Source: a virus | Length of the DNA: 64,000 nucleotides | IMG/VR virus record: IMGVR_UViG_3300016649_000355 | Reading direction: 5' to 3' (one strand) | In this document: positions 3,111 through 60,324 of the stretch, in pieces | Layout of the letters: each line of letters begins with the position of its first letter | Numbering within the stretch: the stretch's first letter is position 1 | Position numbers and translations under genes: made by a program | The notes under the pieces: generated by a model | Told to the model about the DNA's origin: nothing | Databases searched by the model: none | Seen by the model: the letters and a program-made list of their open reading frames with translations, nothing else

Positions 3111-3146
3111 TAATTTGGCACATATCATTATGTGTTTAAATACTTC

Positions 3147-3926
3147 ATGGACTACTACAAAACATTGGGTGTTGAAAAGAACTCAACACCTGATGATATA
3201 AAGAAAGCGTATAGAAAATTAGCGAGTCAGCATCACCCTGATAAAGGAGGTGATACTATTCGTTTCCAAGAAATACAAGCAGCATATGAAACGCTTTCTG
3301 ATCCAATAAAGAGGCAAGAATATGATAATCCTATGCCACAGGGAATGCCGGGGGGATTTCATTTTAATGCTAATGGGTTCGATCTTAACGATATATTTGC
3401 CCAAGTATTCAATCAACATAGACAGCATTCAAATTTTAATAAACAAACTTATAGAACTAGAGTCAATATATCTTTAAAAGATGCTTATTTGGGTACGAAG
3501 TCCACATTAAAGCTACAGGGATTAGCCAATATGAAAATATGCACCATTGATGTTCCTAAAGGAATCACTGACGGTTCGCAAATTAGATACGACAACATAA
3601 TCGATAATGGAAGCCTGATAGTTGAATTTATTATAAATCCTGATCTTAAATTTGACAGAAAGGGAAATGATCTGTATAGTAATGTGTCAATATCAGTTTT
3701 GGATCTAATAGTAGGAACGGAAATTGAATTTACTACATTGTCAGGAAAAAATCTATTAGTTAATATCAATTCAAAAACACAACCATATATGCAATTAAAA
3801 ATACCGGGGGAGGGTATGCCTATATATGGAACAAAAATGTACGGCGACCAAATAATCTTGCTTAAACCATTCATGCCTGATAAAATTGATCAAGCTATAA
3901 CCGACAGTATTTTGCGTTCTAAGTAA
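3147..3926 (+). CDS. dnaJ: DnaJ/CbpA-type co-chaperone without zinc finger
   Basis: DYYKTLGV...HPDKGG J-domain plus DnaJ C-terminal domain; ATG at 3147 preferred. Confidence 0.92.
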   Translation: MDYYKTLGVEKNSTPDDIKKAYRKLASQHHPDKGGDTIRFQEIQAAYETLSDPIKRQEYDNPMPQGMPGGFHFNANGFDLNDIFAQVFNQHRQHSNFNKQTYRTRVNISLKDAYLGTKSTLKLQGLANMKICTIDVPKGITDGSQIRYDNIIDNGSLIVEFIINPDLKFDRKGNDLYSNVSISVLDLIVGTEIEFTTLSGKNLLVNINSKTQPYMQLKIPGEGMPIYGTKMYGDQIILLKPFMPDKIDQAITDSILRSK

Positions 3927-3951
3927 ATTTAAATATATAAAAAGGAAAAAT

Positions 3952-6219
3952 ATGACCAACTCACCCGAAATTGAAAGCATCATTGAACAGGCTATCATTT
4001 TTGCTAAAGATAAAAAACATGAATATTGCACAGTAGAGCATTTATTGCTAGCCCTGGTGAGCCATCCCCCATTCAAAAAATGCCTTGTGAGTTTTGGTGC
4101 TGATATCGAATTGATGATGCAAGATATTAATTCTTACCTTGATAGTCTGCATGCTATTGTGTCTAACAAAGAAGAGGTTACTCCTAGAAAAACTAATTCT
4201 CTAGAGAGGGTAATGAACAGAACGGTTACTCAGGTATTATTTACCGGGCGTAGACAGGTCACTACAATCGATCTCTATCTCAGTATTGCGGCTGAGGGTA
4301 ACAGTCATGCACATTATTTCTTATTAAAATATGGAATCCACAAAGCAGAATTCTTGACTCATTGGCAGAAAACATATAAAGGTAGTGAATACACAAATCA
4401 TCTCACGGAGACACAAGCAGATGAGATCCTTGACGAGAACACGATAAATCTTACAACACTTGCCAAACAAGGTAAATTAGAACCGGTCATTGGTCGTTCT
4501 TCTGAACTGCAAGATATCGTTAATGTTCTGGCAAAAAGATTTAAATCAAATGTATTGATGGTGGGTGATCCGGGGGTGGGTAAGACTGCCATCGTAGAGG
4601 GTTTGGCACAACAGATAGTAGAAGACAATGTTCCGGACTTTCTCAAAGATCATGAACTATACTCCCTAGAGATCGGCGGGTTGCTAGCTGGATCAAAATA
4701 TCGAGGAGACTTCGAAGAAAAAGTTAAAAATGTAATCGATGCCTTGAACACAAAGAAAAAAGCCATTTTGTTTATTGATGAAGCTCACACAATGCAGGGA
4801 GCAGGCAGTGCTACGAATGGTGCTGTCGATTTTGCTAATATGATTAAACCTGCAATCACAAAGGGAACATTAAAGGTTCTTGCAAGTACTACTTGGGAAG
4901 AATTTTATGAAAGTTTTGAAAAAGATCGTGCATTGATGCGAAGATTTTACAAGATTTCTATCGATGAACCATCTAAAGATTCTACAATCAGAATCTTAAA
5001 GGGATTGAGTGTAAGATTGAGCGAGTTCCATGAAGTAGAAATTAATGAGGATGCAATTCTTACCGCTGTTGAAAAAGCAGACCGTTATATTCAAGATAGA
5101 AAGAATCCAGATAAATCTATCGACTTATTGGATGCAGCATGTGCTAAACAAAGGGCGGCTAATAATAAGGGAGCAGTGATAACAAAGCAGTTGATCAATG
5201 AGCAGGTTGAGAAATACACAGGTGTTCCTGCTGATAAATTGAATGGAGATAATCTTGACCGTATCCATAATCTTGAAATAAATATCAAGGAAAAACTTTA
5301 TGGCCAGGATGAAACTGTTGAACAGGTGCTTGAGAGGGTTTATGTGAGTTTTGCAGGTATCGGAACCGAAACGAAACCAATGTCAAGCTTTTTATTTTTA
5401 GGCCCAACAGGTACAGGTAAAACAGAACTTGCAAAGCTATTGAGCAAAAATCTTGACATGCCTTTACTCAAATATGATATGAGTGAATATAGTGAAAAAC
5501 ATTCTGTGTCAAGCTTGATAGGTCCGCCCCCCGGTTATGTAGGTTTTAATGATAGTCAAGTTCAAGGTGGAAGATTGATCAGTGATTTGAGCAAAAGTCC
5601 ACACTCAATCATGTTGTTTGATGAAGTTGAAAAGGCACATCCTGACATATTTAATATCTTTTTGCAGATGTTAGATGAAGGGAGAGTAACTGGCAGTAAT
5701 GGTAAAGAAGTAAGCTGTAAAAACACGATTATTATTTTGACTTCAAATCTAGGTAGCCAAGATAGCGAAAAATTAAATATCGGTTTTAGTGATCAGGAGA
5801 AAACAGGAGAAGATGATAAAGCATTAAAAGAATTTTTCAAACCTGAATTTCGCAACAGGCTTGATCTTGTGTGTAAGTTTAAGAAACTAGACATGCTAGC
5901 CATCAAAAAGATCGTAATCAAATTTACTGAGGAACTCAAAAAGAGTCTGCTTGAAAAACATAACATCACTCTAAATTTAACTGAAAATGTGGTAGAATAT
6001 CTAGCAGAAAAGGGATATGATAAAAAGATGGGTGCGAGACCACTCGCAAGAAAGATCGACGAATTAATACGAGTGCCTTTGAGTAAAAAAATCTTATTTG
6101 AAAAAATTAAAAACGCCAATGTTACCGCAAACTTACTTGATGGGAAAATCGATTTTGGAATTCAAACAAAATCCACAGGCAAGGTAGGAGAAGATGGAAT
6201 CATTACAGTTGAAGGTTGA
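3952..6219 (+). CDS. clpA: ClpA-type Hsp100 AAA+ chaperone
   Basis: Clp N domain (EHLLLAL), two Walker A motifs (GDPGVGKT, GPTGTGKT), IGF ClpP-docking loop, GARPL; no ClpB middle domain. Confidence 0.93.
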   Translation: MTNSPEIESIIEQAIIFAKDKKHEYCTVEHLLLALVSHPPFKKCLVSFGADIELMMQDINSYLDSLHAIVSNKEEVTPRKTNSLERVMNRTVTQVLFTGRRQVTTIDLYLSIAAEGNSHAHYFLLKYGIHKAEFLTHWQKTYKGSEYTNHLTETQADEILDENTINLTTLAKQGKLEPVIGRSSELQDIVNVLAKRFKSNVLMVGDPGVGKTAIVEGLAQQIVEDNVPDFLKDHELYSLEIGGLLAGSKYRGDFEEKVKNVIDALNTKKKAILFIDEAHTMQGAGSATNGAVDFANMIKPAITKGTLKVLASTTWEEFYESFEKDRALMRRFYKISIDEPSKDSTIRILKGLSVRLSEFHEVEINEDAILTAVEKADRYIQDRKNPDKSIDLLDAACAKQRAANNKGAVITKQLINEQVEKYTGVPADKLNGDNLDRIHNLEINIKEKLYGQDETVEQVLERVYVSFAGIGTETKPMSSFLFLGPTGTGKTELAKLLSKNLDMPLLKYDMSEYSEKHSVSSLIGPPPGYVGFNDSQVQGGRLISDLSKSPHSIMLFDEVEKAHPDIFNIFLQMLDEGRVTGSNGKEVSCKNTIIILTSNLGSQDSEKLNIGFSDQEKTGEDDKALKEFFKPEFRNRLDLVCKFKKLDMLAIKKIVIKFTEELKKSLLEKHNITLNLTENVVEYLAEKGYDKKMGARPLARKIDELIRVPLSKKILFEKIKNANVTANLLDGKIDFGIQTKSTGKVGEDGIITVEG

Positions 6220-7426: not shown

Positions 7427-8260
7427 ATGGAAACCATTGCAATATATCCGGGAAGATTTCATCCCTTCCATAAGGGCCATGCTGAAAGCTTTAAACAAAT
7501 GGCACAAGAATTTGGGCCTAATAATACATATCTTGCGATAAGCGCAAAACAAGAACAGCCCAAAAGTCCTTTCAGTGCAGGTGATCGCGCAAAGATGGCA
7601 ATGGCATTAGGTATACCAAAAGAAAATATCATCAGCGTCAACAACACATACGGCGGTGATGAGTATATTCAAAGATTCAAAAAAGCAGGAATCGATCCTG
7701 ATAACACTATATTAGTTTTAGGTGTTAGCAAGAAAGATATGGGATCCGATCCAAGATTTACCTTTGAACCAAAGAAAGATGGATCGATGTCGTATCTACA
7801 ACCCTATCGCAAAGGTCCGCAAGAACCCATGACCAAGCATGCCTACATAGTTTCTACTGATGTTGCTGAATTTCCAATCGCAGGCGAGGTCGTGCGCGAT
7901 GCATCGAAGATACGGGATATGTATAAGCAGGGTGATGATCAACTTAAATCAAAAATATTGACAGATTTATATGGATCAAAAGCTGCCAAATTAATCAAAC
8001 CAATTTTCGATCAAAATCTAACTGTCAATGAAGCGATCACTATTCCAAAATTAAATAAGATAGATTTATACTATAAACCCATTGGCAGGGAAGAGATCAA
8101 AACAGTTTTCAAAAATTTGGATTACAATATGCTTGATAAAATGCTAAAAGCCATCAAGCAAAAACACGGCATAGACGCATCAAAATTTTTCTGGGTACCT
8201 GCAGGACAGAAACCCACTACAACACTAGAAGAATCTATTGATTATCTAGAAGAAAAATAA
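7427..8260 (+). CDS. HxGH cytidylyltransferase/nucleotidyltransferase-family protein
   Basis: YPGRFHPFHKGH and ASKIR motifs. Confidence 0.8.
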   Translation: METIAIYPGRFHPFHKGHAESFKQMAQEFGPNNTYLAISAKQEQPKSPFSAGDRAKMAMALGIPKENIISVNNTYGGDEYIQRFKKAGIDPDNTILVLGVSKKDMGSDPRFTFEPKKDGSMSYLQPYRKGPQEPMTKHAYIVSTDVAEFPIAGEVVRDASKIRDMYKQGDDQLKSKILTDLYGSKAAKLIKPIFDQNLTVNEAITIPKLNKIDLYYKPIGREEIKTVFKNLDYNMLDKMLKAIKQKHGIDASKFFWVPAGQKPTTTLEESIDYLEEK

Positions 8261-8311
8261 TTCGACACACTCCTCATTCAGTAAATATATTTACATTTTA
8301 GTGAGGAACAC

Positions 8312-9235
8312 ATGCCGCGTAAACCAAAAGAAGACAAAAAAGTACCTGTAGAACAGGTAAAAGAAGTTTTACAAGAGATCAAAGAGACTCCTGCAACTAA
8401 CAGCGAACAACAGGTTGTAGCTCAAACCCAAGAAAATCAACAACCACAGCAAGGACAGGTTCAGGTCAATGTAGACTTCTTGCGCACAACAAGAGTTCAC
8501 ATCGCTATGCCTTGTTATGGTGGAATGTTGACTGAATCAACTTTCATGAGTTTCATCAAGTGGGCAAATACTGCCCGTCAATTAGGTATTGATTGGACAT
8601 TGGAAACAATGGTTAACGAATCATTGATTAGCCGCGCAAGAAACACGCTAACTGCTAAATTCCTTGATATGCCCGATGCTACACACTTGTTCTTTGTTGA
8701 TGCTGATATTGGTTGGGAGCCATGGCACTTATTGGTTCTATTGAACCGCGACAAAGATGTTATCGCAGGTTTATATCCCATGAAGACCATGCCAATCAAG
8801 TGGGTTGTCAATGGTTTCGACGGTGCAGAAGAAGGTCCTGATGGCTTACAAGAGGTAAGCAAAGCAGGTACAGGTTTCTTATTGATGAAGAAACATGTGT
8901 TTGAAAAGATGAATAGTCACCCTGCTGTGAAGCAGTACAAGAACGATATCGGACTTGATCCTAAGTATGATCAGTATCTAAAGACTTATTTTGATACAGC
9001 AGTCCGTCAAAATCGTTACTATAGTGAAGACTGGACATTTTGCGAGAACTGGCGTGATCTAGGTGGTCGTATCTGGGTCGATAAGCGTGTATTACTACGC
9101 CATAGTGGTAGCTATGTTTTCTGTATGGAAAATCAACAGCACTTAATGAACACGATCGGACCTATGTACATCAATGAACAAAAGCAAAAAGGCTTTAAGT
9201 TAGTTGATCAAAATGGGAATGAAATAGCTGTTTAA
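8312..9235 (+). CDS. GT-A-fold glycosyltransferase-like protein with Gln-rich N-terminus
   Basis: IAMPCYGG, ESLISRARN, DAD (DxD), GTGFLL and SEDWTFC motifs. Confidence 0.7.
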   Translation: MPRKPKEDKKVPVEQVKEVLQEIKETPATNSEQQVVAQTQENQQPQQGQVQVNVDFLRTTRVHIAMPCYGGMLTESTFMSFIKWANTARQLGIDWTLETMVNESLISRARNTLTAKFLDMPDATHLFFVDADIGWEPWHLLVLLNRDKDVIAGLYPMKTMPIKWVVNGFDGAEEGPDGLQEVSKAGTGFLLMKKHVFEKMNSHPAVKQYKNDIGLDPKYDQYLKTYFDTAVRQNRYYSEDWTFCENWRDLGGRIWVDKRVLLRHSGSYVFCMENQQHLMNTIGPMYINEQKQKGFKLVDQNGNEIAV

Positions 9236-9238
9236 AAC

Positions 9239-9261
9239 AAAGCCCCGAAAGGGGCTTTTTT
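9239..9261 (+). terminator. Rho-independent terminator
   Basis: AAAGCCCC-GAAA-GGGGCTTT followed by T run. Confidence 0.9.
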
Positions 9262-9290
9262 GTTTATGTAGTATTACAAATAAATACTAT

Positions 9291-11144
9291 ATGGACATAA
9301 AAGAATTAGAATCTTTCAAGCTTTCAGATGCGATAAAATTTCACGACCGTTTAAATCCTAGATTATGGCGTGGTAATAAACTACTGCCTGAAGTCAAAAA
9401 ACAATTAGAGTTGATCGCTGACGATTTCATCACAGAATTAGGTATCTCAGGACTTAATGTAGAAGACATAACATTGTCCGGATCTAACGCAGCATATACC
9501 TATACACCAAATAGCGATCTCGATCTACACATACTTGTAGACATGAATAAATTGAAGAACGATGAAGTTTATCGTGAATTATTCCAAGCTAAGAAAACAT
9601 TGTACAATGACTCACATGATATAAAGATTCATGGAGTTCCCGTAGAATTATATGTGCAGGATACTAATGAACCTGTAAAAAGTTTAGGCGAGTATAGTTT
9701 ATTGCGTGATGAGTGGATTAAGATTCCTAAAAAAAGAAAAGCAGAGTTCGATCAACAAGCCGCAAGATTGAAATATGAGAAATTAGAATCATTGATACAC
9801 AATACCATGAAATCTAAAAAGGCAGAAAAGATCGATGAATTATTAAAGACTATCAAACGATATAGACAAGCAGGATTAGACAAGGCGGGTGAGTTCAGTC
9901 CAGAAAACTTAGCATACAAAGCGTTGAGGAACAAGGGTTATATACAAAAGTTATATGATCTAAGAAATATATTACATACCAAAGAACTGAGTATAGAAAA
10001 TATATATGTAAAAGAAGATTATCATCCTAATGCTAAACCACGCGGATCCGAGTATGAAAAAGATAATGTTATAACAGAAGAGGCTTGGCTCGATCAACTT
10101 GTTAAAGATTTAAAAAATAAAGATAAAGATAAAACATATGAATTAACTGATGCTATCGAAGACTGGCATACTATGAACGAAACTGTGAATAGCGTAGATG
10201 TCATACTAGCCAGTAATGAAGCAAAACCATTTAAAACACCTCCCAATAATATCAAAATACTTTATAGGGCAATCGTACCTAAAAACCGTGATATCAATTC
10301 AATCAAATCAAATGGAAAGATCGTTGCCTTCGCTACTGATATCAACGGCGCACATGAATTTATGCGATCAATAGATGTTATGCAAAGATATGTGATCATC
10401 AAGAAAGAATTCAGAAGACAAGATTTTGTATTAGATTATACTAGTTTCTATGAAACATATGATACAGATAGACCAGGATCACGATATATCAGCGAACATG
10501 AAGTGTGGATGAAGAATACTCCATATTATAGATCAGCCAAGAAAGATGAGATAGTCTATGACAGTGATAAAGATGAGAATTTAAATGAAGTTTCAGGATC
10601 TTTACAGAATATAAATCAAGATAATGAGAATGGAAGTTTAGAAGGATATGTGGTAGATACTGATCAACCGCAGTTATTTAATTACTTACAAAGTCAAGGT
10701 GCTGACCCTATAATAGCAAAAAAGATAGCAAAAAAGTTTAAAAGAATCGGTATCATTCGCAATATGTATGTTGATGAAGAATTCAGAAATCAAGGCTTAG
10801 GGAGTGATTTAATTAGCGATGCGATCAATGATGCATTTCTTGAAGGTGCTCAGGCTATCTTATTAGTCAGTGATCAAGGTGAGAGTAACGAATTTGATTT
10901 GACTAAATGGTATCAAAATTTTGGTTTTAAGAAAATTGGTATGGCAGGCACTGATCCTGTGATGCTAATGACTAAACAAATTAATGAAGTCTCGGGATAT
11001 ATTCCAAGCGAAAAACAAAAGAATGATCCACGATTCAGCAATGCCCTGACTATAGATGTCAAACCCAACAGCATTAAAAAGAATGCTAAGGCATTTGGGT
11101 TCGACATCAGTAGAGCAGGTATACCACCATTATTGAGGAAATAA
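9291..11144 (+). CDS. Modular protein: Pol-beta-type nucleotidyltransferase, ADP-ribosyltransferase-like module, GNAT acetyltransferase
   Basis: GSNAAYTYTPNSDLDLHI; LYRA...FAT...EHEV; YVDEEFRNQGLGSDL...WYQNFGF. Confidence 0.7.
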   Translation: MDIKELESFKLSDAIKFHDRLNPRLWRGNKLLPEVKKQLELIADDFITELGISGLNVEDITLSGSNAAYTYTPNSDLDLHILVDMNKLKNDEVYRELFQAKKTLYNDSHDIKIHGVPVELYVQDTNEPVKSLGEYSLLRDEWIKIPKKRKAEFDQQAARLKYEKLESLIHNTMKSKKAEKIDELLKTIKRYRQAGLDKAGEFSPENLAYKALRNKGYIQKLYDLRNILHTKELSIENIYVKEDYHPNAKPRGSEYEKDNVITEEAWLDQLVKDLKNKDKDKTYELTDAIEDWHTMNETVNSVDVILASNEAKPFKTPPNNIKILYRAIVPKNRDINSIKSNGKIVAFATDINGAHEFMRSIDVMQRYVIIKKEFRRQDFVLDYTSFYETYDTDRPGSRYISEHEVWMKNTPYYRSAKKDEIVYDSDKDENLNEVSGSLQNINQDNENGSLEGYVVDTDQPQLFNYLQSQGADPIIAKKIAKKFKRIGIIRNMYVDEEFRNQGLGSDLISDAINDAFLEGAQAILLVSDQGESNEFDLTKWYQNFGFKKIGMAGTDPVMLMTKQINEVSGYIPSEKQKNDPRFSNALTIDVKPNSIKKNAKAFGFDISRAGIPPLLRK

Positions 11145-11145
11145 A

Positions 11146-11889
11146 ATGGAATTACGAGGAGTAAACATAACCAATTTAAATATAGTAACCAGTCCCGGGG
11201 TAACACCTCCGCCCTCACCAGTGACCACTGGTTTAGTTTTATATTACGATCCAAGCAATAGTTCAAGTTATTCTGGTAGTGGCACAACAGTCAATAGTCT
11301 TGTAAGTCCTAATCTGACAGGTACTATGACTAATATAACTTATACCAGTCCTTACTTTAGTTATAATGGTACAAGTTCTACAGTTTCAATAGCAGATAGT
11401 GCATCATTAGAACCAGGCTCAGGTGACTTTACTATTGAGGCATGGGTCTATTATACCACTATCACAGGTAGTAGTCGTGTGATCATGGGCAAAACTAACG
11501 GCGGTCTTGCAGCAGATTGGGGATATGGATTGAGAACAGGCAGCAACGGAGCAACTTTCTTTGAAGTAGGCAACGGAACAACATCAATTCCATCATCTAA
11601 TTTCACTGCTAGTACTGGACAATGGTATCAGGTAGTGGGTGTATGGACTAATGTAGCATCAAACTCTATTGCTCTATATCGGAATGGCACACTCATTGGC
11701 AGCAATAGTCATTCATTTGCCAGCGTGAAAGATACCACTAGTCCACTATATCTTGGATCATTCAATGGTGGTCAATTTTCACAATGGTTGAACGGTCGCA
11801 CAGGCATCATAAGATACTATAATACTGCACTATCTGGCGCAGATGTATTGCAGAATTTCAACGCAAATAAAGCATTATACGGTTTGTAA
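11146..11889 (+). CDS. LamG/concanavalin A-like domain protein, probably virion-associated
   Basis: GLVLYYD, FTIEAWV, WYQVVGV, LYRNG and YNTALS motifs. Confidence 0.85.
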   Translation: MELRGVNITNLNIVTSPGVTPPPSPVTTGLVLYYDPSNSSSYSGSGTTVNSLVSPNLTGTMTNITYTSPYFSYNGTSSTVSIADSASLEPGSGDFTIEAWVYYTTITGSSRVIMGKTNGGLAADWGYGLRTGSNGATFFEVGNGTTSIPSSNFTASTGQWYQVVGVWTNVASNSIALYRNGTLIGSNSHSFASVKDTTSPLYLGSFNGGQFSQWLNGRTGIIRYYNTALSGADVLQNFNANKALYGL

Positions 11890-11927
11890 TAAATCTGATA
11901 AATAGTATATAACCACGGAATCGTATC

Positions 11928-12941
11928 ATGAAAATCAATCAAATCACTGAATCAACAACCGCAGGATCTATAGCTACAGTTGAAGGGGGTCAGGGCCAAA
12001 CTCAATATAGAAATCCTAGCATCTATGGATTAACATCCGGTGAGTCTATGCTTAAAGGCAAAAAGACTAAAAAGAAATTCGCAAATAGCCTCAATGAGGG
12101 CAAAGTCAAAGAACTCATGATGGATTTAGCTAATCCCCCCCGTGGATTGAGTGATGAAGAATTCAAAAAAGTTTACAAGATGACAAAACAAGAAGCAAGA
12201 CAACTGATGAAAGTTAACGAACAAGAAGTCAATGAAGCAGATTTGATATTAGTTCCTGGCCAGGGTCATAGAATGAAGCCTGGCTTCATCGCTAGAGACA
12301 TGGATAGAACTGATCGTGAGATAGAGATGGCAAGCGGTGATTTATATCAGGCGGCAAAAAATGCTAAAATGATCTATGACATGATCAAAGACATTCCCGA
12401 AGAGCGTGGATTAGAAGGATGGGTTCAGGAAAAGATCACTAAAGCAGCAGACTATCTAAACACTGTCCGTGAATACATAGAACAGAAAAGAATGGCAAAT
12501 GAGAACGGCGGGGTCATCGCAGGATTTGGAATCGCAGAAACGGCTGAGAAAGTATTAAATGACGGCATGAAGAATCTCAAGGCAATACACGCTGCAATTG
12601 AAAAGGGCGGTGATGCATTGTTTACATTTAATGGTAAATTCAAGGATGTACCTAGCGAGTATTTAAGGGCATTGCGCGGTACTTATACTGCATCATTGAA
12701 AAATGATAGACAACAAGATATGTTAAATATTCTAGGTGATGAAAACAAATTCAACAGATTAATGCAACGATTAGACGATGAATTATTTGCTAAGTATCGT
12801 GATGTAAGCGAGAGAAAAAAGAATCTTTATCCGATAGGCATGGCACAGGCGATGAAGTCTACAGGTGACAAGCCTCCCCTAGAGAAATCAACCATTGTTA
12901 AAGCACATGATATCGCTAGATCAATACAGCGCAAGGGTTAA
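11928..12941 (+). CDS. Probable internal head protein, modular
   Basis: MKINQITE leader; LNE and VNE junctions; LEGWVQEKITKAADYL module. Confidence 0.6.
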   Translation: MKINQITESTTAGSIATVEGGQGQTQYRNPSIYGLTSGESMLKGKKTKKKFANSLNEGKVKELMMDLANPPRGLSDEEFKKVYKMTKQEARQLMKVNEQEVNEADLILVPGQGHRMKPGFIARDMDRTDREIEMASGDLYQAAKNAKMIYDMIKDIPEERGLEGWVQEKITKAADYLNTVREYIEQKRMANENGGVIAGFGIAETAEKVLNDGMKNLKAIHAAIEKGGDALFTFNGKFKDVPSEYLRALRGTYTASLKNDRQQDMLNILGDENKFNRLMQRLDDELFAKYRDVSERKKNLYPIGMAQAMKSTGDKPPLEKSTIVKAHDIARSIQRKG

Positions 12942-12943
12942 TC

Positions 12944-15721
12944 ATGAGCAAGATCATAGAAGGCATACAGTTATCAGAGAAGAAAAAGAAGCCAAAGCCA
13001 ACCAGCCCCGAAAAATGGTCTAGAGCTAAAGCAAAAGCCCGAAGCAAGTTCGATGTATATCCTTCAGCATATGCTAATGCTTATGCTGCTAAAGAATACA
13101 AAAAAATGGGCGGTGGCTGGAGAATGGGCGAAAGCACTGAAGAAGTTGATGAAAGTGCATTACAGGCATATCTAGGTAATAAAAAATATGGTAAAGACGG
13201 CATGAATGCTCTGAGAAGGGCAGGCCGTGAAGGTGCTAGCAGAGAACAAATGGCAAAAATTCGGGACAGATATAATAAGTTGGACGAGGAAATAATCACA
13301 CAAAAAACGATACACGATTTAGCAGATAGCAGAGGAATCAAATGGGACAATGAACCCAGTTTTTTGAGATTGACCAAAAGGCTGACAGGCAAAGAACATC
13401 TAGATCAACTTAATCAAGAAGAGTTGATAAAAATCAAAAAATATCTTGAAAATCAAGGTGTGGCGGAAGGCTTAACGGAAGCTAGAGACAGTTTGTTTGC
13501 CTTTGTGAAGCGACATTTTCCAACTTGGCCTGACTATGTGTTGAAAGACTTCTTGTATTCACAAGCCAAGGGCATTCGTGATCAGGCAGAGTTAGATGAT
13601 TTTCTTAAAAGAAACAAACAAGACTTTGGCGATTGTAAATGGACACTAACTAAATTGCCCATAACCTTTGATATCTTTACACCCAAGACTCAGCGTATGC
13701 TTGCCAGTAGAGAAGGCGGTAGTTCTAATCCTTTTCAAGTACCGCGTGATGCTGAAAGACACGCATTGCAATCACAAATGATACAGCAAAAGGGTGTGAG
13801 TGCAGAACCAATTATTGTTGCCAAATTGTCCAACGGCTATGATTTGATCGAAGGTTGGCATAGAACTATTCAGCATTTGAAGGCATTCCCTCAAGGATAC
13901 ACTGGTCCTGCTTGGGTATGCACCGGAGCCACATACAAAAGTGAAAGTGTCAGGCAAGGTGTGGCGGAAGACTTGTTAGCAGAGATGGATAAAAGTGCTC
14001 CGCAACCTGGTCGTGATGGTCGAGTAAGTCACAGCACCTATGGATCCAGAGATAAAGGTGGTAGTAAAGGACCTGAAAAAGAAGCCAAACCAATCACAGC
14101 AAAAAAAGCTAAACAAGCCGCACTTGATATACTGAAGAAACAAGGTGTGGCGGAAGGCTCATTAGATGAAATCAACCGTAGAGGATTCTTGAAAGGCTTA
14201 GGTGCGGCGGCTGTGGCAGGTGCGGCTGGTGGTGCTAAGGCTGATAGATTTTGGCAACAAGATGAACTAACAAAACAATTTAAAGGCCAAATGACTTCTG
14301 AAACATTTAATGGAGCAGTTATACATTGGGATGAAGAACGAAAGATTGCTAGTCTAGCATTAACTCAACCTACTAATTTTAGTATTAATAATGTTAAACA
14401 GAATAGATTATATTTTCCAAAGTTTACATCAACTAACTTTATTATAAAAATAGGCGAAAATTCTCCATTAAATGGTACCGGAACTCCTTATCAATTTCCT
14501 TTAAGGCAGTTAGGTGATTATGAAGGTAACGGATTAATAATTTTACGCGGCAATCAATTTACTAAGGTTAGAGAAGATTTTATCAATGCAGATAAAGTTC
14601 TCATCAGAGTAGAGGTCGATGGCCTTCCAACTACAATGACATTTCATGACAATCTAGGATACATTCAGCAAAGACAGACACAACGAAAACAACCAATTTT
14701 AGATAAAATTTATCAAGAAGAAAAAAAAGGTAGCACTGTGTCTGGGTTTCATGGAATATATTCTGCTATTCAATTAAGATCAATACTAGAACCCTTTAAA
14801 GATCAAATTCCTGGACAGTTTGAACTGTTGGATCAGGAAATTAATACTTTACTTTCTAACACACAAGGACACCAGATTGCTAAAGACATTGAAGAACAAA
14901 TAAAAAAAGATAAATCTCTTAAAGACCTTATTAAAAGTGACGAAAAATATAAACATCTGTTAGTCAGCGATGCTGAGACTGCTAATCGTTGGCTCGCATC
15001 AGTTTACGGAAAGGTAATGATAAGATTAAAAGAATATAACACCATGCTGAGTCAGATTAAAGAAAGCGTTGAGCAAGGTGTCTCGGAAGGCTCATTAGAT
15101 GAAAATTGGAAAAATAAACTAGCTGCTGGGGCATTATCCGCTGCAATGGGATTAGGCGCGATGGGAGCAGCCAATGCTCAGAATGTAAAACAAACTGATC
15201 TAGGAAATGACTTTGTATCTACCTCGATAGAAGTTGCCGGTCACAATTTAAATGCTGTATATGATGATGTGACTAAAACATATTTCACGCTCAACAAGAA
15301 TCCAAATACTGGTTATTCAATATACAAGACTCCGGCCCGTTATATAGCAATTAAAAATGGAAAAGTAGAACCAATGTCAAAACTTGGTCCAAAAACACTT
15401 GACGCAATGAGTAAAGCAGGATTAGAAAATGATGTAAAAGAAGATACCACCATGCGATTCGCAGCAGAAAAATTACCGGCACAAAATCCCTACGGTGGAG
15501 TAAAGGATAGACAATTTCGTGGCGCGATAGCAGAGACAGAAGCAGTGAATCGCAATGACGGTGATGGCTGGCGCTGGTATGAACCCCGCGAACAAGAACA
15601 ATTAGATGAATTGAAATGCTGGCCCGGTTACACTAGGGTCAAGGGAGTGCCTGCAGGCGCAGTTGGTAGCTGCAAAAAGAAGACCAAAGAAAGCTCTATC
15701 ATGAAGGGCTTGCAGAAATGA
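12944..15721 (+). CDS. Modular polyprotein with QGVAEG junction repeats, a ParB/Srx-like module and internal signal peptides
   Basis: 925 aa; four QGV(A/S)E repeats; PIIV...YDLIEGWHR; internal RRGFLK Tat-like signal. Confidence 0.75.
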   Translation: MSKIIEGIQLSEKKKKPKPTSPEKWSRAKAKARSKFDVYPSAYANAYAAKEYKKMGGGWRMGESTEEVDESALQAYLGNKKYGKDGMNALRRAGREGASREQMAKIRDRYNKLDEEIITQKTIHDLADSRGIKWDNEPSFLRLTKRLTGKEHLDQLNQEELIKIKKYLENQGVAEGLTEARDSLFAFVKRHFPTWPDYVLKDFLYSQAKGIRDQAELDDFLKRNKQDFGDCKWTLTKLPITFDIFTPKTQRMLASREGGSSNPFQVPRDAERHALQSQMIQQKGVSAEPIIVAKLSNGYDLIEGWHRTIQHLKAFPQGYTGPAWVCTGATYKSESVRQGVAEDLLAEMDKSAPQPGRDGRVSHSTYGSRDKGGSKGPEKEAKPITAKKAKQAALDILKKQGVAEGSLDEINRRGFLKGLGAAAVAGAAGGAKADRFWQQDELTKQFKGQMTSETFNGAVIHWDEERKIASLALTQPTNFSINNVKQNRLYFPKFTSTNFIIKIGENSPLNGTGTPYQFPLRQLGDYEGNGLIILRGNQFTKVREDFINADKVLIRVEVDGLPTTMTFHDNLGYIQQRQTQRKQPILDKIYQEEKKGSTVSGFHGIYSAIQLRSILEPFKDQIPGQFELLDQEINTLLSNTQGHQIAKDIEEQIKKDKSLKDLIKSDEKYKHLLVSDAETANRWLASVYGKVMIRLKEYNTMLSQIKESVEQGVSEGSLDENWKNKLAAGALSAAMGLGAMGAANAQNVKQTDLGNDFVSTSIEVAGHNLNAVYDDVTKTYFTLNKNPNTGYSIYKTPARYIAIKNGKVEPMSKLGPKTLDAMSKAGLENDVKEDTTMRFAAEKLPAQNPYGGVKDRQFRGAIAETEAVNRNDGDGWRWYEPREQEQLDELKCWPGYTRVKGVPAGAVGSCKKKTKESSIMKGLQK
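13454..13471 (+). repeat. In-frame junction repeat, copy 1 (CAAGGTGTGGCGGAAGGC)
   Basis: Read directly from the sequence. Confidence 0.95.
13955..13972 (+). repeat. In-frame junction repeat, copy 2 (CAAGGTGTGGCGGAAGAC)
   Basis: Read directly from the sequence. Confidence 0.95.
14141..14171 (+). repeat. In-frame junction repeat, copy 3 (CAAGGTGTGGCGGAAGGCTCATTAGATGAAA)
   Basis: Read directly from the sequence. Confidence 0.95.
15074..15104 (+). repeat. In-frame junction repeat, copy 4 (CAAGGTGTCTCGGAAGGCTCATTAGATGAAA)
   Basis: 29 of 31 nt identical to copy 3. Confidence 0.93.
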
Positions 15722-16122
15722 GAGACTTGCTTGACATATTAGAAGCAGTTGAGAAAGGTTGCCCTCCCGCCACACAGAATATCGATCTCAACTTGCGCAA
15801 TAGGCAAAAAGCCATCGATGAATATCATTATGGTCCACTAAATCCCAATGAACCCAACGATGAGTATTGGCAAGAACTAGCAGATAAATGGAATACCGAT
15901 GACATCGAAAGCGTGAAAAAGAATCGTTGCGGAAATTGTGCTGCATTTGACATAAGCGAGGATATGTTAGATTGTATAGCCAAAGGTATAGGCAGCGAGC
16001 CGGGAAGTGACCCACATGATACTATAGACGCCGGACATCTTGGATATTGTAAATTCTTGAAATTCAAATGCGCAGCCAAAAGAACATGTGATGCCTGGGT
16101 AGAAGGTGGACCAATAACATGA
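15718..16122 (+). CDS. Cys-rich, probably metal-binding hypothetical protein
   Basis: CGNC...YC...C...CDAW; MRDLLDILE leader. Confidence 0.65.
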   Translation: MRDLLDILEAVEKGCPPATQNIDLNLRNRQKAIDEYHYGPLNPNEPNDEYWQELADKWNTDDIESVKKNRCGNCAAFDISEDMLDCIAKGIGSEPGSDPHDTIDAGHLGYCKFLKFKCAAKRTCDAWVEGGPIT

Positions 16123-17447
16123 GAGCAGATGAATTTATAAGTGAAGGCTCTTATCAAGGTGGGCTACGCAAGTGGTTTAAAGAAAAGTGGGTAAATCTAG
16201 CTAAGAAGAAAAAGGGCGGTGGGTATGAACAATGTGGTTCTAGCGGTGACACCAAGGGATATGCGAAGTGTGTACCAGCAGCCAAAGCTGCAAGAATGTC
16301 AGACAAAGAAGAAAAGTCAGCTATCAATAGGAAGCGTTCAGCACAGCGCAAAGCAGGTAGACCCGGCAAACGATCCGGGGGTAAAGGCAAAACTCCAATC
16401 TTTGTCAAGACAAAGGTAAAAGAGGGCACCGATCAAGAGTTTTATACAGGTGGGGCATTAGGCTTGCCCTATCCTGGTACATATGAGCAAGAGAATGAAC
16501 CGTTTAAAACTAAAGGTCAAAGAAGGATGGGTACATTGACCACAGAAGAAAGATATAAAGGCAATCTAGGATTAATGGAGTTGATAGCTTTCTTCAAGCA
16601 ACATCCCGAACTATTGAAACAATTCAATGAGATTAAAAAAGAATATGGTGCTGAAAAATCATTGGAATTCGCGTTACAACATATCAATAAAACATTAGAA
16701 CCAGTATTGCAGGAAGGCATCAATGATCCATCAATTTTCAAGGTAGTGTTCGTTGTGGGAGGCCCGGGCAGCGGAAAAAGTTATGTATCTAGGCAGCTTG
16801 GATTAAATGCTATGGGATTAGTAACAATCAACAGCGACCATGCTTTTGAATATTTGATGCAAAAACAGGGCCTCGACTTGAAAATGCCACCAGAGGAAGA
16901 AATAGAACGAGACATAGTTCGAAATAGGGCGAAAGAAATAGTCAATAAAAAATCTGATTTAGCGATAGATGGAAGACTAGGATTACATATAGATGGTACT
17001 GGTTCTGATTTCACAAAGGTACAAAATCTAAAAAATAATTTTGACATGTTGGGCTACGATAGTTATCTGATTATTGTCAATACAAAGCTCGATGTGGCAA
17101 GATCGAGAAATCAATCAAGAAAAAGAAGTGTGCCAAATGATCTTTTGACTAAACGCTGGCGTGATGTGCAGAATAATATTGGTCGTTTCGCAGAGATATT
17201 TCCAAGATTCAGCATCATCGACAACAGTGGCGATATAAATAATACCGATTCACAGATCAACAAAGTATATACAAGATTAGTTAAATTTTTAAACGAACCC
17301 CCCACAAAACCTATTGCTAGAAAATGGATAGAAGATCATAAATCTCAGGTGAACGAAAAGTGGTCAGAAAAATATAAGCGCAGCATAGATTGTAGTAATC
17401 CAAAAGGATTTAGCCAGAGGGCACATTGTCAAGGACGGAAAAAGTAA
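16119..17447 (+). CDS. Modular protein with zeta-toxin/AAA_33-like P-loop kinase domain
   Basis: VVGGPGSGKS, INSD, IDGTG, RNQSRKRSVP; MRADEFISE leader. Confidence 0.75.
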   Translation: MRADEFISEGSYQGGLRKWFKEKWVNLAKKKKGGGYEQCGSSGDTKGYAKCVPAAKAARMSDKEEKSAINRKRSAQRKAGRPGKRSGGKGKTPIFVKTKVKEGTDQEFYTGGALGLPYPGTYEQENEPFKTKGQRRMGTLTTEERYKGNLGLMELIAFFKQHPELLKQFNEIKKEYGAEKSLEFALQHINKTLEPVLQEGINDPSIFKVVFVVGGPGSGKSYVSRQLGLNAMGLVTINSDHAFEYLMQKQGLDLKMPPEEEIERDIVRNRAKEIVNKKSDLAIDGRLGLHIDGTGSDFTKVQNLKNNFDMLGYDSYLIIVNTKLDVARSRNQSRKRSVPNDLLTKRWRDVQNNIGRFAEIFPRFSIIDNSGDINNTDSQINKVYTRLVKFLNEPPTKPIARKWIEDHKSQVNEKWSEKYKRSIDCSNPKGFSQRAHCQGRKK

Positions 17448-17890
17448 TGTTATCAGATACACTTAAAACACTATTAGCAACAAGTTATGGATTTGCTATC
17501 AAGGCACAGAACTTTCACTGGAATGTTGAAGGTCCAGACTTTCCACAGTATCATGAATTCTTTGGAGAAATATATCAAGAAGTTTTCGATAATGCCATCG
17601 ATCAAACTGCTGAGTATATAAGAACGCTTGGAAGCTATACTCCGGGTAGTTTCACGAGGTTGCACGAATTATGCCAGATAGAAGATCAACTCAAGATTCC
17701 TAGGGCAGAACTGATGTTCGCTGAATTAGAGCAAGACAATCAAAAGTTATTAGACATGTTGAAGCAAGCCTTTCACATAGCTGAAGAAAGTGATGAGCAA
17801 GGCATAGCAAATTTCATCGCCGAGAGAATCGATGCGCATGCCAAACATGGCTGGATGTTGAGAGCAACATTAAATAAAGCTAGGGCATAA
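17447..17890 (+). CDS. dps: Dps/ferritin-like DNA protection protein
   Basis: HWNVEGPDFPQYHEFF, DQTAEYIRTLG and KHGWML motifs. Confidence 0.92.
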   Translation: MLSDTLKTLLATSYGFAIKAQNFHWNVEGPDFPQYHEFFGEIYQEVFDNAIDQTAEYIRTLGSYTPGSFTRLHELCQIEDQLKIPRAELMFAELEQDNQKLLDMLKQAFHIAEESDEQGIANFIAERIDAHAKHGWMLRATLNKARA

Positions 17891-17904
17891 GATAAATATT
17901 CTCT

Positions 17905-18591
17905 ATGCGTATTATAGAGATATGTGAGTCTATAGAAGAGGCTGAGAAAGACACGGATGAGTCTAACGAGATCGTAAAAGTTTTTAAACAAAACGGATAC
18001 AATCAGGTAGGTTCAGGTGCTGACGCTACTGTATGGGCTAAAGATGCGGGCAGCGTGATAAAGATATTGATGCCTGACAGCGAGGATATAACAAAAGCAG
18101 CATTTACTTTCAAGAAGTTCTATACATTTTGTAAGAACAATGAGAGTGTTGCCTGCTTGCCTAAATTTATTCCTATACAAGGAAAAGACTATCAATCTTT
18201 TCAGCTTGGTACTAAAAAGTATTTGCAAATATCAATGGAAGAGTTGAGACCTATTCCAACACTTTCGTTTGATGAAGGTATAGTGTGGTTTTTTAGTGAT
18301 TTTGTGATACATGATACCCGTTGGGATGATGTCAATAAAAAATTATTGAATGCAAGGATCTGGGCAGATCACAACTGGAAGCAATCTGAACAGTATGCTG
18401 AACAATGGAAAAATCTTACTATAGAAAAAAGAATGGAATATCGGATATTATACATGACTATGAATCTGTTATACAAGACAGGTAAGATCAATAAATTAGG
18501 TTGGGATCTGCATACTGAAAATGCCATGATGCGCGGTGATACAATCGTTATCACTGACCCATGGTTTGAAAGATATTCAGGATCATTATGA
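17905..18591 (+). CDS. Protein-kinase-like fold protein
   Basis: GSGADATVW, VIKI, DLHTENAM and ITDP motifs. Confidence 0.75.
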   Translation: MRIIEICESIEEAEKDTDESNEIVKVFKQNGYNQVGSGADATVWAKDAGSVIKILMPDSEDITKAAFTFKKFYTFCKNNESVACLPKFIPIQGKDYQSFQLGTKKYLQISMEELRPIPTLSFDEGIVWFFSDFVIHDTRWDDVNKKLLNARIWADHNWKQSEQYAEQWKNLTIEKRMEYRILYMTMNLLYKTGKINKLGWDLHTENAMMRGDTIVITDPWFERYSGSL

Positions 18592-19121
18592 GAGTCAACG
18601 AAGCTAGCCCCGATACATTTGAAGGTAGTTTGAGTGATGATCAATTGATCAGCCGTTTATGGATGGCTAAACGATTGAATGACACCGGCATTCCCGTGAA
18701 AAAATGTGTAGTTCTAGGAAGCTGGTACGGCCTAGTTCCCTATATATTAAGAAAGATCAATCGCATCCCAACAATAGTGGCTATTGATGGAAATCAAAAA
18801 TATATAGATGCTAGCAAGAAACTCAATCCACACATCAAGCATTTATGTAAAGATGTGAACGACATGCATTATCATGGTGCTGATTGTGTGGTAAACCCCA
18901 GCATCAATAATATAGCGGGCACTAAATGGTATGAGAACATACCTATGGGCAAGTTATGTTTATTTCAGACTGAAGACATAGAAGTAGAAAAAAACTGTCC
19001 TTCTAATTTAGAAGAATTAAAAACTAAGTTCCCATTAAGTAAATACTTGTATGAAGGAACATTGAGTTGCAAAGATAAGGATGGGCCTTATACAAGAAGT
19101 ATGATCATAGGAATAAAATGA
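18588..19121 (+). CDS. Class I SAM-dependent methyltransferase-like protein
   Basis: VVLGSWYG, AID and KDVN motifs. Confidence 0.6.
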   Translation: MRVNEASPDTFEGSLSDDQLISRLWMAKRLNDTGIPVKKCVVLGSWYGLVPYILRKINRIPTIVAIDGNQKYIDASKKLNPHIKHLCKDVNDMHYHGADCVVNPSINNIAGTKWYENIPMGKLCLFQTEDIEVEKNCPSNLEELKTKFPLSKYLYEGTLSCKDKDGPYTRSMIIGIK

Positions 19122-19828
19122 AATTATTTACTAATGGATGTAGTTGGACTTACGGAGGAGGCCTTGATTTGGATCAGCCTTACCAAGAGGCTGAAAGATT
19201 AAAGGTTGTGTGGCCTCACCATTTGGGAAAGTTATTAAATACTGATCAGGTAGTAAATCTAGCAATGGGGTGCGGAAGTAATCAAAGAATGATAAGAACG
19301 ACATTTGATTGGTTACTTACTCAAACAAAACAAGAACTCGCAGATACAATAGCAGTGATTCAATTTACAGAACCTAGTAGATTTGAAATAAATTACGAAA
19401 ATGACTGGTATAATTGCAAGATAGGATGTGTTACATTTGGAGACAATCGTGTAGCTAATACACATGAAGAAAATTTTAAAGTTCAGGAAATGTATAGTCT
19501 AGTAGAATCTAGATTTGTAACATACTCGGATGTAGAAGGTGACTACTCATTATTGTCTTCAGCTACATCTATAGATAACTTATTTAAACAATTTCATTTA
19601 AAAGATTGGTATTTTTGGTCTTTTAGTAATGATTTCATGCGCAGTAAATATAAAGAGTATTATTGCAATAATTTTAAAATAGTTGATAAACAATATATGA
19701 CAGATTTATGGAAGTATTCAAGGGTAGGAATAAAATTTTTTAATCAAGAATTTGATCCACATCCTAGTATCGAGGGACATCGGCAAGTTGCAAACGCATT
19801 ATTTCATGAAATGGGAACATACAAATGA
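19118..19828 (+). CDS. SGNH/GDSL-hydrolase-like protein
   Basis: TNGCSWT, NLAMGCGSN and DPHPSIEGH motifs. Confidence 0.7.
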   Translation: MKLFTNGCSWTYGGGLDLDQPYQEAERLKVVWPHHLGKLLNTDQVVNLAMGCGSNQRMIRTTFDWLLTQTKQELADTIAVIQFTEPSRFEINYENDWYNCKIGCVTFGDNRVANTHEENFKVQEMYSLVESRFVTYSDVEGDYSLLSSATSIDNLFKQFHLKDWYFWSFSNDFMRSKYKEYYCNNFKIVDKQYMTDLWKYSRVGIKFFNQEFDPHPSIEGHRQVANALFHEMGTYK

Positions 19829-20256
19829 AAAAAATATTAGCAATAGTTTTACTATCACTAACCAGTATCGCACACGCACAGAAACAGGGGGTAACATATG
19901 ATGCACAAATTCTTAGGGTTAACGATGGAGATACGGTCGTTATTTCTGCTCCATTTTTACCTGCTCCGCTAAAACCAGAACTTGCCGTGAGAATATATGG
20001 GGTAGACACACCTGAAAAGGGTTTCCGCGCACAGTGTCCCCAAGAAGATGCTAGGGGAAAGGCTGCTAGTGAATTCACTAAGAAAGCGGTAGCCGGGGCG
20101 CAGAAAAGACAAGTTGTTTTAATGGACTGGGATAAGTTCGGCGGTCGCGTGTTAGGCGACATTATCTTAGATGGTGTGAGCCTTAGAGAAATGCTAATCA
20201 AAAATAACATGGCCCGAGCATACTTCGGCGAAGCGAAACAAAGCTGGTGCAATTGA
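19825..20256 (+). CDS. Thermonuclease (SNase) family protein with signal peptide
   Basis: DGDT, RIYGVDTPE, DKFGGRVLG; AHA cleavage site. Confidence 0.9.
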   Translation: MKKILAIVLLSLTSIAHAQKQGVTYDAQILRVNDGDTVVISAPFLPAPLKPELAVRIYGVDTPEKGFRAQCPQEDARGKAASEFTKKAVAGAQKRQVVLMDWDKFGGRVLGDIILDGVSLREMLIKNNMARAYFGEAKQSWCN

Positions 20257-20269
20257 TAAATATTTAATC

Positions 20270-20965
20270 ATGCGAGCCACTGAGTTTTTAATAGAAAAAA
20301 ATAGAAAAAGAAAGCGCACAAAATTGCGCAAATACTTTTTTCCTGGTTTTGCCTATTACGGAGGTTACGGTGGTGAAGATTCAGGTGGTGATGGCGGAGG
20401 CGGAGAAAGCATGTATGAAAGTGCTGTCGATGAGCTAAAGCAGCAGCTACCATCACTTAAAAAACATGACTATGATACAATCGATAGACTCATGAGAGGT
20501 ATAGCGAAAAAACACAAGATCACAGGAAAAGCACTACATGATCTATTTGTTAACAAATATAAAAAGACCCCGGATGACTGGATAAAAAATAAATTAGACG
20601 AACAGCTAGACCTTGATATGGTCGGGGAAGTGGAGAAATTCAGCGACTGGGCCTGTAAAAAATTGAATGTACAGAACCAACCCAGGATCAATTTAAGTTA
20701 CGATACAGAAGAGGCGCAGACAAATCATCACACCGGGGGGCATGTAATGGGTGACGATGAGATTTGGGTATACGCTAAAAATCGCAATTTAGTCGATATA
20801 TTGAGGACTGTGTTCCATGAATTGGTTCATGTGAGGCAGGAAGAATTGAACATGATCAAGCATGGTTCAAGTTATCCCGGAAGCCCCATCGAAGCGATGG
20901 CAGACATGCTTGCGGGCAAATACATCAAGATTTACGGCAAAGATAATCCAAAAATATTCCAATAA
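20270..20965 (+). CDS. Modular protein with HExxH zinc-metallopeptidase-like domain
   Basis: RTVFHELVH...EAMAD; MRATEFLIE leader. Confidence 0.7.
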   Translation: MRATEFLIEKNRKRKRTKLRKYFFPGFAYYGGYGGEDSGGDGGGGESMYESAVDELKQQLPSLKKHDYDTIDRLMRGIAKKHKITGKALHDLFVNKYKKTPDDWIKNKLDEQLDLDMVGEVEKFSDWACKKLNVQNQPRINLSYDTEEAQTNHHTGGHVMGDDEIWVYAKNRNLVDILRTVFHELVHVRQEELNMIKHGSSYPGSPIEAMADMLAGKYIKIYGKDNPKIFQ

Positions 20966-39222: not shown

Positions 39223-39534
39223 CTACTTATATACCTTTGATGAATTATAGTTAGGTTGTGTATCTACAAATTCTGATCCTCCACCTGCACCAATAATACA
39301 GGCATAGTCATTGTCATACTCTACCATAGACCAAGTGTTTTTGTTTTGATTGACAAATAAAATAAACTTACTACGGCTACTAACTCCCAACCAACTGGGA
39401 ACTTCTTTATATTTTTGATTTGTCAGTAATGAAAAAACTCTTTCAGCTTTATCGCACACTACTTCTTTGTTCTCGATAGTAGGTTGTGCTAATGCGATGC
39501 CAGGAAATAATAGTATTAAGAGTTTTTTCATCAA
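39223..39534 (-). CDS. Secreted hypothetical protein
   Basis: Signal peptide MKKLLILLFPGIALA; two Cys. Confidence 0.65.
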   Translation of the reverse strand: MMKKLLILLFPGIALAQPTIENKEVVCDKAERVFSLLTNQKYKEVPSWLGVSSRSKFILFVNQNKNTWSMVEYDNDYACIIGAGGGSEFVDTQPNYNSSKVYK

Positions 39535-49687: not shown

Positions 49688-49921
49688 ATGAACAATAAAA
49701 CTAGGGAAGAATCCAATCTGCAATTCTTGAGAGAATCGATTGCTAATGCTCCTTTAAGTGAGTTCAAAAAATGGTTCTCAGAGCAGGAAGATTATGTCAA
49801 GGAAGATGTAGTCTCACTAATCGATATCCATATTATGGAACTTCAGGATCTGAAACAAGACCTGTCAGGCGATGTTGCAACCGCACAAAATTTATTAAAA
49901 AAGATCGCATCCAAAATTTGA
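49688..49921 (+). CDS. Hypothetical phage protein
   Basis: AAGGA RBS before ATG at 49688. Confidence 0.65.
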   Translation: MNNKTREESNLQFLRESIANAPLSEFKKWFSEQEDYVKEDVVSLIDIHIMELQDLKQDLSGDVATAQNLLKKIASKI

Positions 49922-49946
49922 CAATAAATGGATTTGGGTATATAAT
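49918..49946 (+). promoter_or_regulatory. Consensus sigma70 early promoter
   Basis: TTGACA-17-TATAAT. Confidence 0.9.
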
Positions 49947-49978
49947 AGTCTTCATACAGTCAAACAACGGAGATAGAG

Positions 49979-51063: not shown

Positions 51064-51092
51064 TTGACAATAAATGGCTTTATGTCTATAAT
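51064..51092 (+). promoter_or_regulatory. Consensus sigma70 early promoter
   Basis: TTGACA-17-TATAAT. Confidence 0.9.
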
Positions 51093-51121
51093 AGATTTTA
51101 TTGAATAACTCAGGAGCAATC

Positions 51122-58841: not shown

Positions 58842-58858
58842 ATTTGATAAGTAAATCT

Positions 58859-60058: not shown

Positions 60059-60276
60059 GTTTAAAAGGTAGAAAAGTTCTAGTACAAGACAACAATGTTG
60101 AAAAGGCACTGCGAAAATTCAAGAAAAAAATCGCGGATAGTGGACTATTACTTGAACTTCAATTACGATCAACTTATATGAAACCCACTACTAAAAAGAA
60201 ATTAGCCAAATCACAGGCTAAGCGTAGGTGGAATAAGTATCTGAGGTCTCAAGAACTTCCACCAAAAAAATATTAA
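60055..60276 (+). CDS. rpsU: Ribosomal protein bS21
   Basis: VEKALRKFKKK...G...E...YMKPT...AKRR. Confidence 0.88.
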   Translation: MSLKGRKVLVQDNNVEKALRKFKKKIADSGLLLELQLRSTYMKPTTKKKLAKSQAKRRWNKYLRSQELPPKKY

Positions 60277-60324
60277 CCCGTAAATATATTATTTTTTTAC
60301 GAAATACAGTATACTAAATACTGT

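Follow-up and report, generated by a model that had tools for sequence, protein, structure and literature searches.

A codon-fixed, in-frame joint at which modules of T4-like phage polyproteins change neighbours

In a 64,000-nt stretch of viral DNA (IMG/VR record IMGVR_UViG_3300016649_000355; hereafter the window) one open reading frame (ORF) of 925 aa at positions 12944–15721 harbors repeated copies of a short sequence, here termed the joint, by which distinct protein modules are connected in frame. Modules change neighbours at this joint, full and empty sites differing by a cassette together with one joint copy, and the joint is constrained at the DNA level, its spelling being fixed across a clade of phages. 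The phage from which the window comes is large, T4-like and of freshwater origin. Taken together, the data make it fairly probable that the joint is dual-coded, acting as a short-homology recombination handle in the DNA and as a gp21-type cut site in the protein, and in this way diversifies head cargo.

A joint with a fixed spelling

The 16-mer CAAGGTGTGGCGGAAG, which encodes QGVAE, is found exactly at 13454, 13955 and 14141 of the window and with two mismatches at 15074, all four copies being in frame with the ORF (aa 171, 338, 400 and 711). The original prediction, made from the letters of the window, had described these positions, the spacings of 501, 186 and 933 nt, all multiples of 3, and the agreement of copies 3 and 4 at 29 of 31 nt, and each of these is confirmed. 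A chance repeat was rejected, with 0.34 matches expected and at least four reached in 0 of 100 shuffles. The peptide formerly given, QGVAEG, is present in copies 1 and 3, whereas copy 2 reads QGVAED and copy 4 QGVSEG. Four unrelated modules had been listed; distinct modules are indeed present between the copies, but the list was incomplete, as further modules are joined by other xxE linkers (VDE 68, LDE 113, VKE 831, LDE 887) and module C opens with a Tat-like signal. The rarity of the GTG and GCG codons of the joint in AT-rich DNA is confirmed as well (window G+C 37.8%; GTG 19% of Val codons, GCG 11% of Ala codons), the codon use of the window leading to an expectation of 0.43% of copies for the five-codon spelling.

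The joint is widespread in related phage sequences, an exact scan yielding 132 stretches and an estimated total near 1,400 for the viral collection. At 166 of 171 unique exact sites the frame reading QGVAE is the longest open one, and the joint is always located on the coding strand. When QGVAEGS was scanned for without bias, all third positions being free, there were 124 stretches in 117 unique contexts, 81 of which share a single 18-base spelling, where codon use in the flanks predicts 0.24%; many of the remaining 36 resemble chance matches in unrelated sequence, and all were retained. The Glu codon of the joint is GAA in 115/117 contexts, and the Ser codon following it is unconstrained (36/35/31/15). 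In pairs of 18 module A copies, which are not mutually independent, the identity at four-fold sites amounts to 0.90, 0.89 and 0.85 in the linker versus 0.71, 0.67 and 0.52 in the module. This comparison of synonymous conservation between repeat and flanks had been proposed along with the claim that the constraint acts on the DNA and not only on the peptide, and it bears the claim out, as does the dominance of one spelling.

Among 596 billion bases of prokaryotic genomes no more than 56 stretches contain the 18-mer, as single copies except in one contig of a metagenome-assembled genome (MAG), and it is therefore not a host repeat; a host chromosomal repeat or dif-like site was rejected on this ground. 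The exceptional contig (L469), labelled Bacteroidetes MAG, contains three exact joint copies and is probably of phage origin but binned with a bacterium.

Exchange of modules at the joint and at other segments

Joint copies beside a module were counted with up to 3 mismatches, and the module A loci were not dereplicated. Module A has the joint on its left in 26/33 loci and on its right in 30/36, the loci without it being mostly stand-alone or N-terminal genes with a leader of their own. At the protein level module A is present in 67 of 121 proteins, 62 with a left and 62 with a right linker according to a loose peptide pattern. Its neighbours are 35 distinct ones on each side, never including those of the window, and its polyprotein partners comprise GNAT, LysM, GH19, deaminase and nucleotidyltransferase domains, so that the expected presence of one module in several host ORFs, broken at the repeat, is borne out. 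Several biochemically unrelated domains thereby coexist in one polypeptide of these phages.

The 578 joint sites display 570 distinct upstream-downstream combinations, and in a partial sample the flanks form 436 upstream and 434 downstream clusters. Among clusters with at least two sites, 80/83 upstream and 81/86 downstream have more than one partner, shares that are inflated because identical contexts had been collapsed beforehand. Joint-to-joint spacings below 1,500 nt (median 230 nt) are in frame and without a stop in 254 of 271 cases.

Gain and loss of cassettes in frame at the repeat, as formerly proposed, is evident from seven full/empty DNA pairs among 881 sites, in which the difference consists of one or two cassettes plus their joint copies; the site of the pair L256/L258 is located immediately upstream of module A, and the pair L186/L492 is ambiguous. 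In L186 (99–500) and L492 the same sequence is found upstream of two consecutive joints, possibly a trace of cassette tandem duplication or re-integration. Between two copies of QGVAE, the orthologous host proteins P0087 and P0092 show a difference of about 60 residues. In a 12-kb contig with 96–97% identity to the window, both ends of the ORF are retained, 13133–15074 is replaced by 157 other bases, and the window sequence resumes at copy 4 (15075), a join seen in two runs, both from one study. The assumption that orthologous loci differ by whole modules at the repeat applies to copy 4 and to P0087/P0092, but not to the left breakpoint of this contig (13132) nor to exchanges at other shared segments. 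Two copy-to-copy joins, 13470–14141 and 13471–14138, were set aside as repeat-only with a short side of 21 letters.

Orthologous host ORFs sharing both ends were found by protein search; none of 80 loci of the downstream 134-aa gene (15718–16122) has both the N- and the C-terminal modules of the ORF. Elsewhere this gene is an in-frame part of polyproteins (L042, L411:2359–3918), directly followed by the joint in L042. In another ORF (L026:1613–3982) three near-identical short modules starting with GSKYPWLD each follow a worn joint, and the stand-alone gene 39531–40682 on the minus strand, which has an xxE leader, resembles by eye the last module of polyprotein P0086.

Not every exchange occurs at the joint. 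In a contig from another study modules A and B are kept and the payload that follows the Tat-like segment is swapped (between 14235 and 15059); the second half of module C is also exchanged near aa 580. Scanned with third positions free, the Tat-like segment gave 45 stretches, from which 37 unique contexts, the window among them, could be used; their payloads mostly differ, and their codon bias is pronounced (CGT in 31, AGA in 32, GGA in 33, GCG in 22 and 20 of the 37). A hydrophobic-x-Glu motif lies just ahead of the segment in 33/37 and the joint upstream of it in 16/37. The Tat-like segment is a second codon-biased swap point, fused to many payloads and widely shared in the clade (window, L480–L524). 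Codon locking at more than one shared junction is what would be expected if exchange ran on homology itself, and thus favours homology-driven crossover over a dedicated recombinase.

Table 1. Modules, linkers and signal-like segments of the 925-aa ORF
Feature	Positions	Strand	Remarks
Modular polyprotein, 925 aa, predicted head cargo	12944..15721	+	Only single modules in common with relatives
N-terminal leader of 12 residues with L-S-E at its end, candidate for capsid targeting	12944..12979	+	From sequence; function by analogy with the T4 capsid-targeting sequence (CTS; PMC9026906, available in part)
Basic N-terminal module, conserved in orthologous host ORFs	12980..13132	+	PHROG 27331
Two small modules with VDE/LDE linkers, missing from close relative	13133..13453	+	Second one also in P0038, P0115
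Joint copy 1 (QGVAEG), then L-T-E	13454..13471	+	
Module A, ParB/Srx-like fold, mobile cassette; stand-alone gene with own leader in relatives	13472..13954	+	
Joint copy 2 (QGVAED), then L-A-E	13955..13972	+	
Module B, basic cassette, 56 aa; two copies in polyprotein P0093	13973..14140	+	
Joint copy 3 (QGVAEG), then L-D-E	14141..14158	+	
Tat-like signal segment right after predicted cut; second codon-biased swap point	14171..14242	+	Pfam TAT_signal 25.1 bits, cut-off 22.7
Module C payload, two sub-domains without family; second half swapped near aa 580 in relatives	14243..15073	+	
Joint copy 4 (QGVSEG, 2 mismatches), then L-D-E; right breakpoint of close relative	15074..15091	+	
Module D, signal-like hydrophobic segment and small payload without family, ends V-K-E	15104..15442	+	
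Module D hydrophobic signal-like segment	15104–15178	+	By-eye call
Two C-terminal micro-modules, conserved in orthologous host ORFs	15443..15721	+	

Predicted cleavage and the agent of exchange

According to the accessible portion of PMC9026906, gp21 of T4 cuts after L/I-X-E and strips internal proteins of their 10-residue targeting leaders, and the cut sites of phiKZ are redundant. The joint ends with V-A-E, and an L-x-E follows each copy in the window. A second [LIV]-x-E is present 3–8 residues past the joint at 79 of 408 sites versus 15–21 in control windows, so that the joint fits the gp21 rule at the level of the pattern, in line with the formerly claimed protease-cleavable linker, and is likely a gp21-type cut site. 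The leader of the ORF ends with L-S-E at aa 12, and by pattern match short leaders with a terminal hydrophobic-x-Glu are also found on several neighbouring genes. Because modules A and C exist as single genes as well, with a short xxE leader in the place of the joint, joint and leader end appear interchangeable at the level of the pattern. Directly behind the predicted cuts, modules C and D carry signal-like segments, which would work only once released by the cut; in other polyproteins LysM domains follow starts of a similar kind. By eye, the start of the module D payload (15179–15260) is like the payloads behind the Tat-like signal in L480, L487 and L507, a likeness suggesting that a payload may carry either a Tat- or a Sec-like signal.

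Enzymes were searched for in 17 related IMG/VR records, which are mostly incomplete and do not include the genome of the window itself. The gp21-family protease (PF03420) is found in 7/17, including three of the four rated at least 90% complete and the terminally complete G010, and related records contain a T4-type head block with this protease. The record G003 (L403–L420), rated 99% complete, is without the portal-protease-scaffold-capsid block; completeness ratings of these records are thus unreliable, and absences there carry little weight. RecA/UvsX is present in 9/17 records, again including G010.

In our preferred reading, general phage recombination acts on a self-reinforcing shared spelling. 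Crossovers within 16–18 shared bases by T4-type recombination (RecA/UvsX), or by annealing or template switching in co-infection, would move cassettes, possibly via small circles as for the promoter-early stem-loop (PeSL) elements. The spelling would stay fixed because only cassettes with the common spelling keep moving, while in-frame V-A-E products would remain processable. The N-terminal leader would load the polyprotein into the prohead, where gp21 would cut after V-A-E and the neighbouring L-x-E and release each module as a separate capsid cargo protein, and the cuts would expose the N-terminal Tat-/Sec-like signals on modules C and D and so direct payloads to the host envelope.

The main rival is an enzyme dedicated to the joint, a sequence-specific recombinase or nickase from a family not yet recognised, encoded by phage or host and working like an integron within reading frames, which we regard as unlikely. 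It would account for the near-constant spelling, rare GTG/GCG codons included, in phages with distant core proteins (mostly 30–80% identity between the window and G003) and for the precision of the full/empty pairs, and it is compatible with the finding that variation linked to the upstream module extends to +4 while variation linked to the downstream module begins at +8, as for one crossover point; this crossover map, based on few events, fits a fixed cut and spread crossovers alike. On the other hand, none of the candidate enzymes was detected: tyrosine recombinases (PF00589) in 0/17 related records including G010, resolvase-type enzymes (PF00239) in 0/10, large serine recombinases (PF07508) and single-strand annealing proteins not having been searched for, reverse transcriptases in 0/10, and IS110, Y1 transposases and type II topoisomerases in 0/8 each. 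These negatives rest mainly on G010, because only this record has terminal repeats. Furthermore, the joint sequence contains no inverted repeat, and the top-strand folds of the four 57-nt regions around the joints differ and share no hairpin (z −2.16 to +0.23), by which an attC-like hairpin was rejected. Only 56 matches in the prokaryotic bases and the breakpoints at other shared segments speak against such an enzyme as well, and the integron-like dedicated integrase of the original prediction is not supported.

Several observations weigh against the preferred recombination and cleavage reading. Sixteen to 18 bases are short for recombination of the UvsX type. The 3′ edge of the constraint is sharp and variants within +1 to +13 rarely travel with either flank, which fits a site recognised by a protein equally well. 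Back-joints of excision circles are absent among the joins listed, which stem from assembled contigs only, and the left breakpoint of the close relative is located away from any joint copy. Module B displays a weaker joint association (left 14/31 loci, directly right 14/31, right within 85 nt 24/31). With regard to cleavage, V-A-E departs from the L/I-X-E rule of T4 gp21 as given in the available text of PMC9026906, [LIV]-x-E is also found within modules (aa 301, 503, 542, 614 and 649), and gp21 is absent from the window.

Selection on the protease site only, with a spelling inherited from one recent ancestral linker and no continuing DNA-level role, is already weakened and is considered very improbable. 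Modules often more than 90% identical between phages, worn copies, common alternative xxE linkers and the peptide-level enrichment of the second [LIV]-x-E would agree with it, but four-fold sites are 85% identical in the linker where those of the module fall to 52%, one spelling is kept across hundreds of unrelated flanks, and indels remove exactly one copy. An RNA or DNA signal unrelated to crossover (internal Shine-Dalgarno pause, Chi-like site or protein-binding site), with domain borders merely tolerating breakpoints, can hardly be upheld either. In its favour, the joint is G-rich, always on the coding strand and pairs weakly with the anti-Shine-Dalgarno sequence (−6.9 kcal/mol); against it, the synonymous GAG would pair better (−10.0) and is nevertheless passed over for GAA, and neither in the window nor in G003 are the 6- and 8-mers of the joint clearly enriched genome-wide. 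A Shine-Dalgarno pause and a Chi-like word were rejected accordingly.

If homology-driven exchange and cleavage hold, one short sequence provides a frame-safe crossover place in the DNA and, likely, a cargo cut place in the protein, a concrete and testable route for assembling and reshuffling polyvalent phage effector proteins. With 436 upstream and 434 downstream flank clusters, the joint may also serve as a search tag for hundreds of small phage effectors without known function, and export signals behind predicted head-protease cuts would be an unusual routing of virion cargo to the host envelope. A further-reaching idea, to which we attach rather little confidence, is that a clade of jumbo lake phages uses a two-tier in-gene plug-in standard, the joint being read by a recombination enzyme of its own and cut by the head protease, with swappable export signals active only after the cut. 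If true, this would amount to a community-wide library of injected effectors, integron-like but building proteins instead of operons.

Module identities, genomic setting and likeness to known systems

The original prediction of a ParB/Srx-like domain in module A is only moderately supported. The Pfam match to ParB_N has an E of 0.24, and the predicted structure (pLDDT 83.8) has ParB as its best Foldseek match (prob 0.96, E 8e-3, TMq 0.30), all matches listed belonging to the ParB/Srx family; module A appears to fold most like ParB/Srx proteins. The motif GWHR is invariant in module A copies, and a PDB sequence search with the module gave no match. For modules C and D a pattern search of viral contigs yielded no relatives and the Atlas no named family. 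The complete ORF has no match in 50,697 GenBank phage records and no Pfam match to a zincin-like metallopeptidase, a search that was not made in the related genomes.

The window proteins match those of the 343-kb record G003, with the order largely kept and identities mostly of 30–80%. The best-matching runs are freshwater metagenomes, with no RNA run among the matches listed. Around the ORF (7427–20965), candidate cargo genes that have xxE leaders or contain xxE linkers form a cluster, namely a cytidylyltransferase-like gene, a Pol-beta nucleotidyltransferase with GNAT (9291–11144), a P-loop kinase with a Zeta_toxin Pfam match (16119–17447) and a protein kinase-like gene (17905–18591), with a Dps-like ferritin gene located in their midst. 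Judged by their translations, host-like genes for PhoH, DnaJ, ClpA, ClpX, a small heat-shock protein and ClpS are located at 541–1317, 3132–6219 and 58844–61194. The segment 27112–35966 presumably contains 7-deazaguanine/queuosine-pathway-like genes (FolE, QueD and QueE-like) along with glycosyltransferases, DNA modification being a possible role. A sigma70-like promoter repeat is present in two copies (49918–49955 and 51064–51101), 1,146 nt apart, and is reminiscent of PeSL-type early promoters.

Literature searches, covering mainly open-access text without supplements, returned no description of the joint, the single match to 'QGVAEG' being a fungal proteomics paper and the accessible text of PMC12373910 containing nothing relevant. 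In integrons an IntI-type tyrosine recombinase acts on attC hairpins, cassettes are gained or lost with one site each, and their order is shuffled. The gain and loss of a cassette with one site copy is shared by the joint (full/empty pairs; P0087/P0092), but here no IntI-type recombinase (PF00589 0/17) and no attC hairpin are found, and the cassettes are in-frame domains.

The literature on the following systems was available in part. PeSL cassettes of the T4-like phages RB49/phi1, PST and nt-1 (PMC2839356, PMC4122927) have in common with the joint short conserved repeats around variable parts, exchange, insertion and deletion at these repeats, and no integrase identified beyond T4-type recombination. 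Mini-circles have been demonstrated for PeSLs (PMC2839356, PMC4122927). PeSLs are intergenic, consist of a promoter and a stem-loop and move whole genes (PMC2839356, PMC4122927). In contrast, the joint is coding and in frame (166/171 sites), 16–18 nt long and hairpin-free, and links the modules within a single protein.

Polyvalent proteins (Iyer et al. 2017, PMC5512222) likewise combine unrelated effector domains in one phage polypeptide, among them ParB-like, GNAT, Pol-beta nucleotidyltransferase and lysozyme-type domains, and are predicted to be injected and processed. Their processing, however, is ascribed to a zincin-like metallopeptidase (PMC5512222), and in the accessible text of that article the word 'linker' is absent and cassette recombination is only raised as a possibility. 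The internal proteins IPI-III and Alt of T4 (PMC9026906, PMC3012670) share with the polyproteins described here short leaders ending in xxE and a small, basic and divergent cargo, and a gp21-family protease is present in the clade (7/17 related records). Contrary to the T4 internal proteins, which are single proteins with one leader each (PMC9026906, PMC3012670), the joint-bearing polyprotein, whose packaging is predicted, has many cargos behind one leader, predicted internal cuts and a joint fixed in its DNA. The joint works like the PeSL cassettes and the T4 internal proteins combined, but it is neither a PeSL nor an integron.

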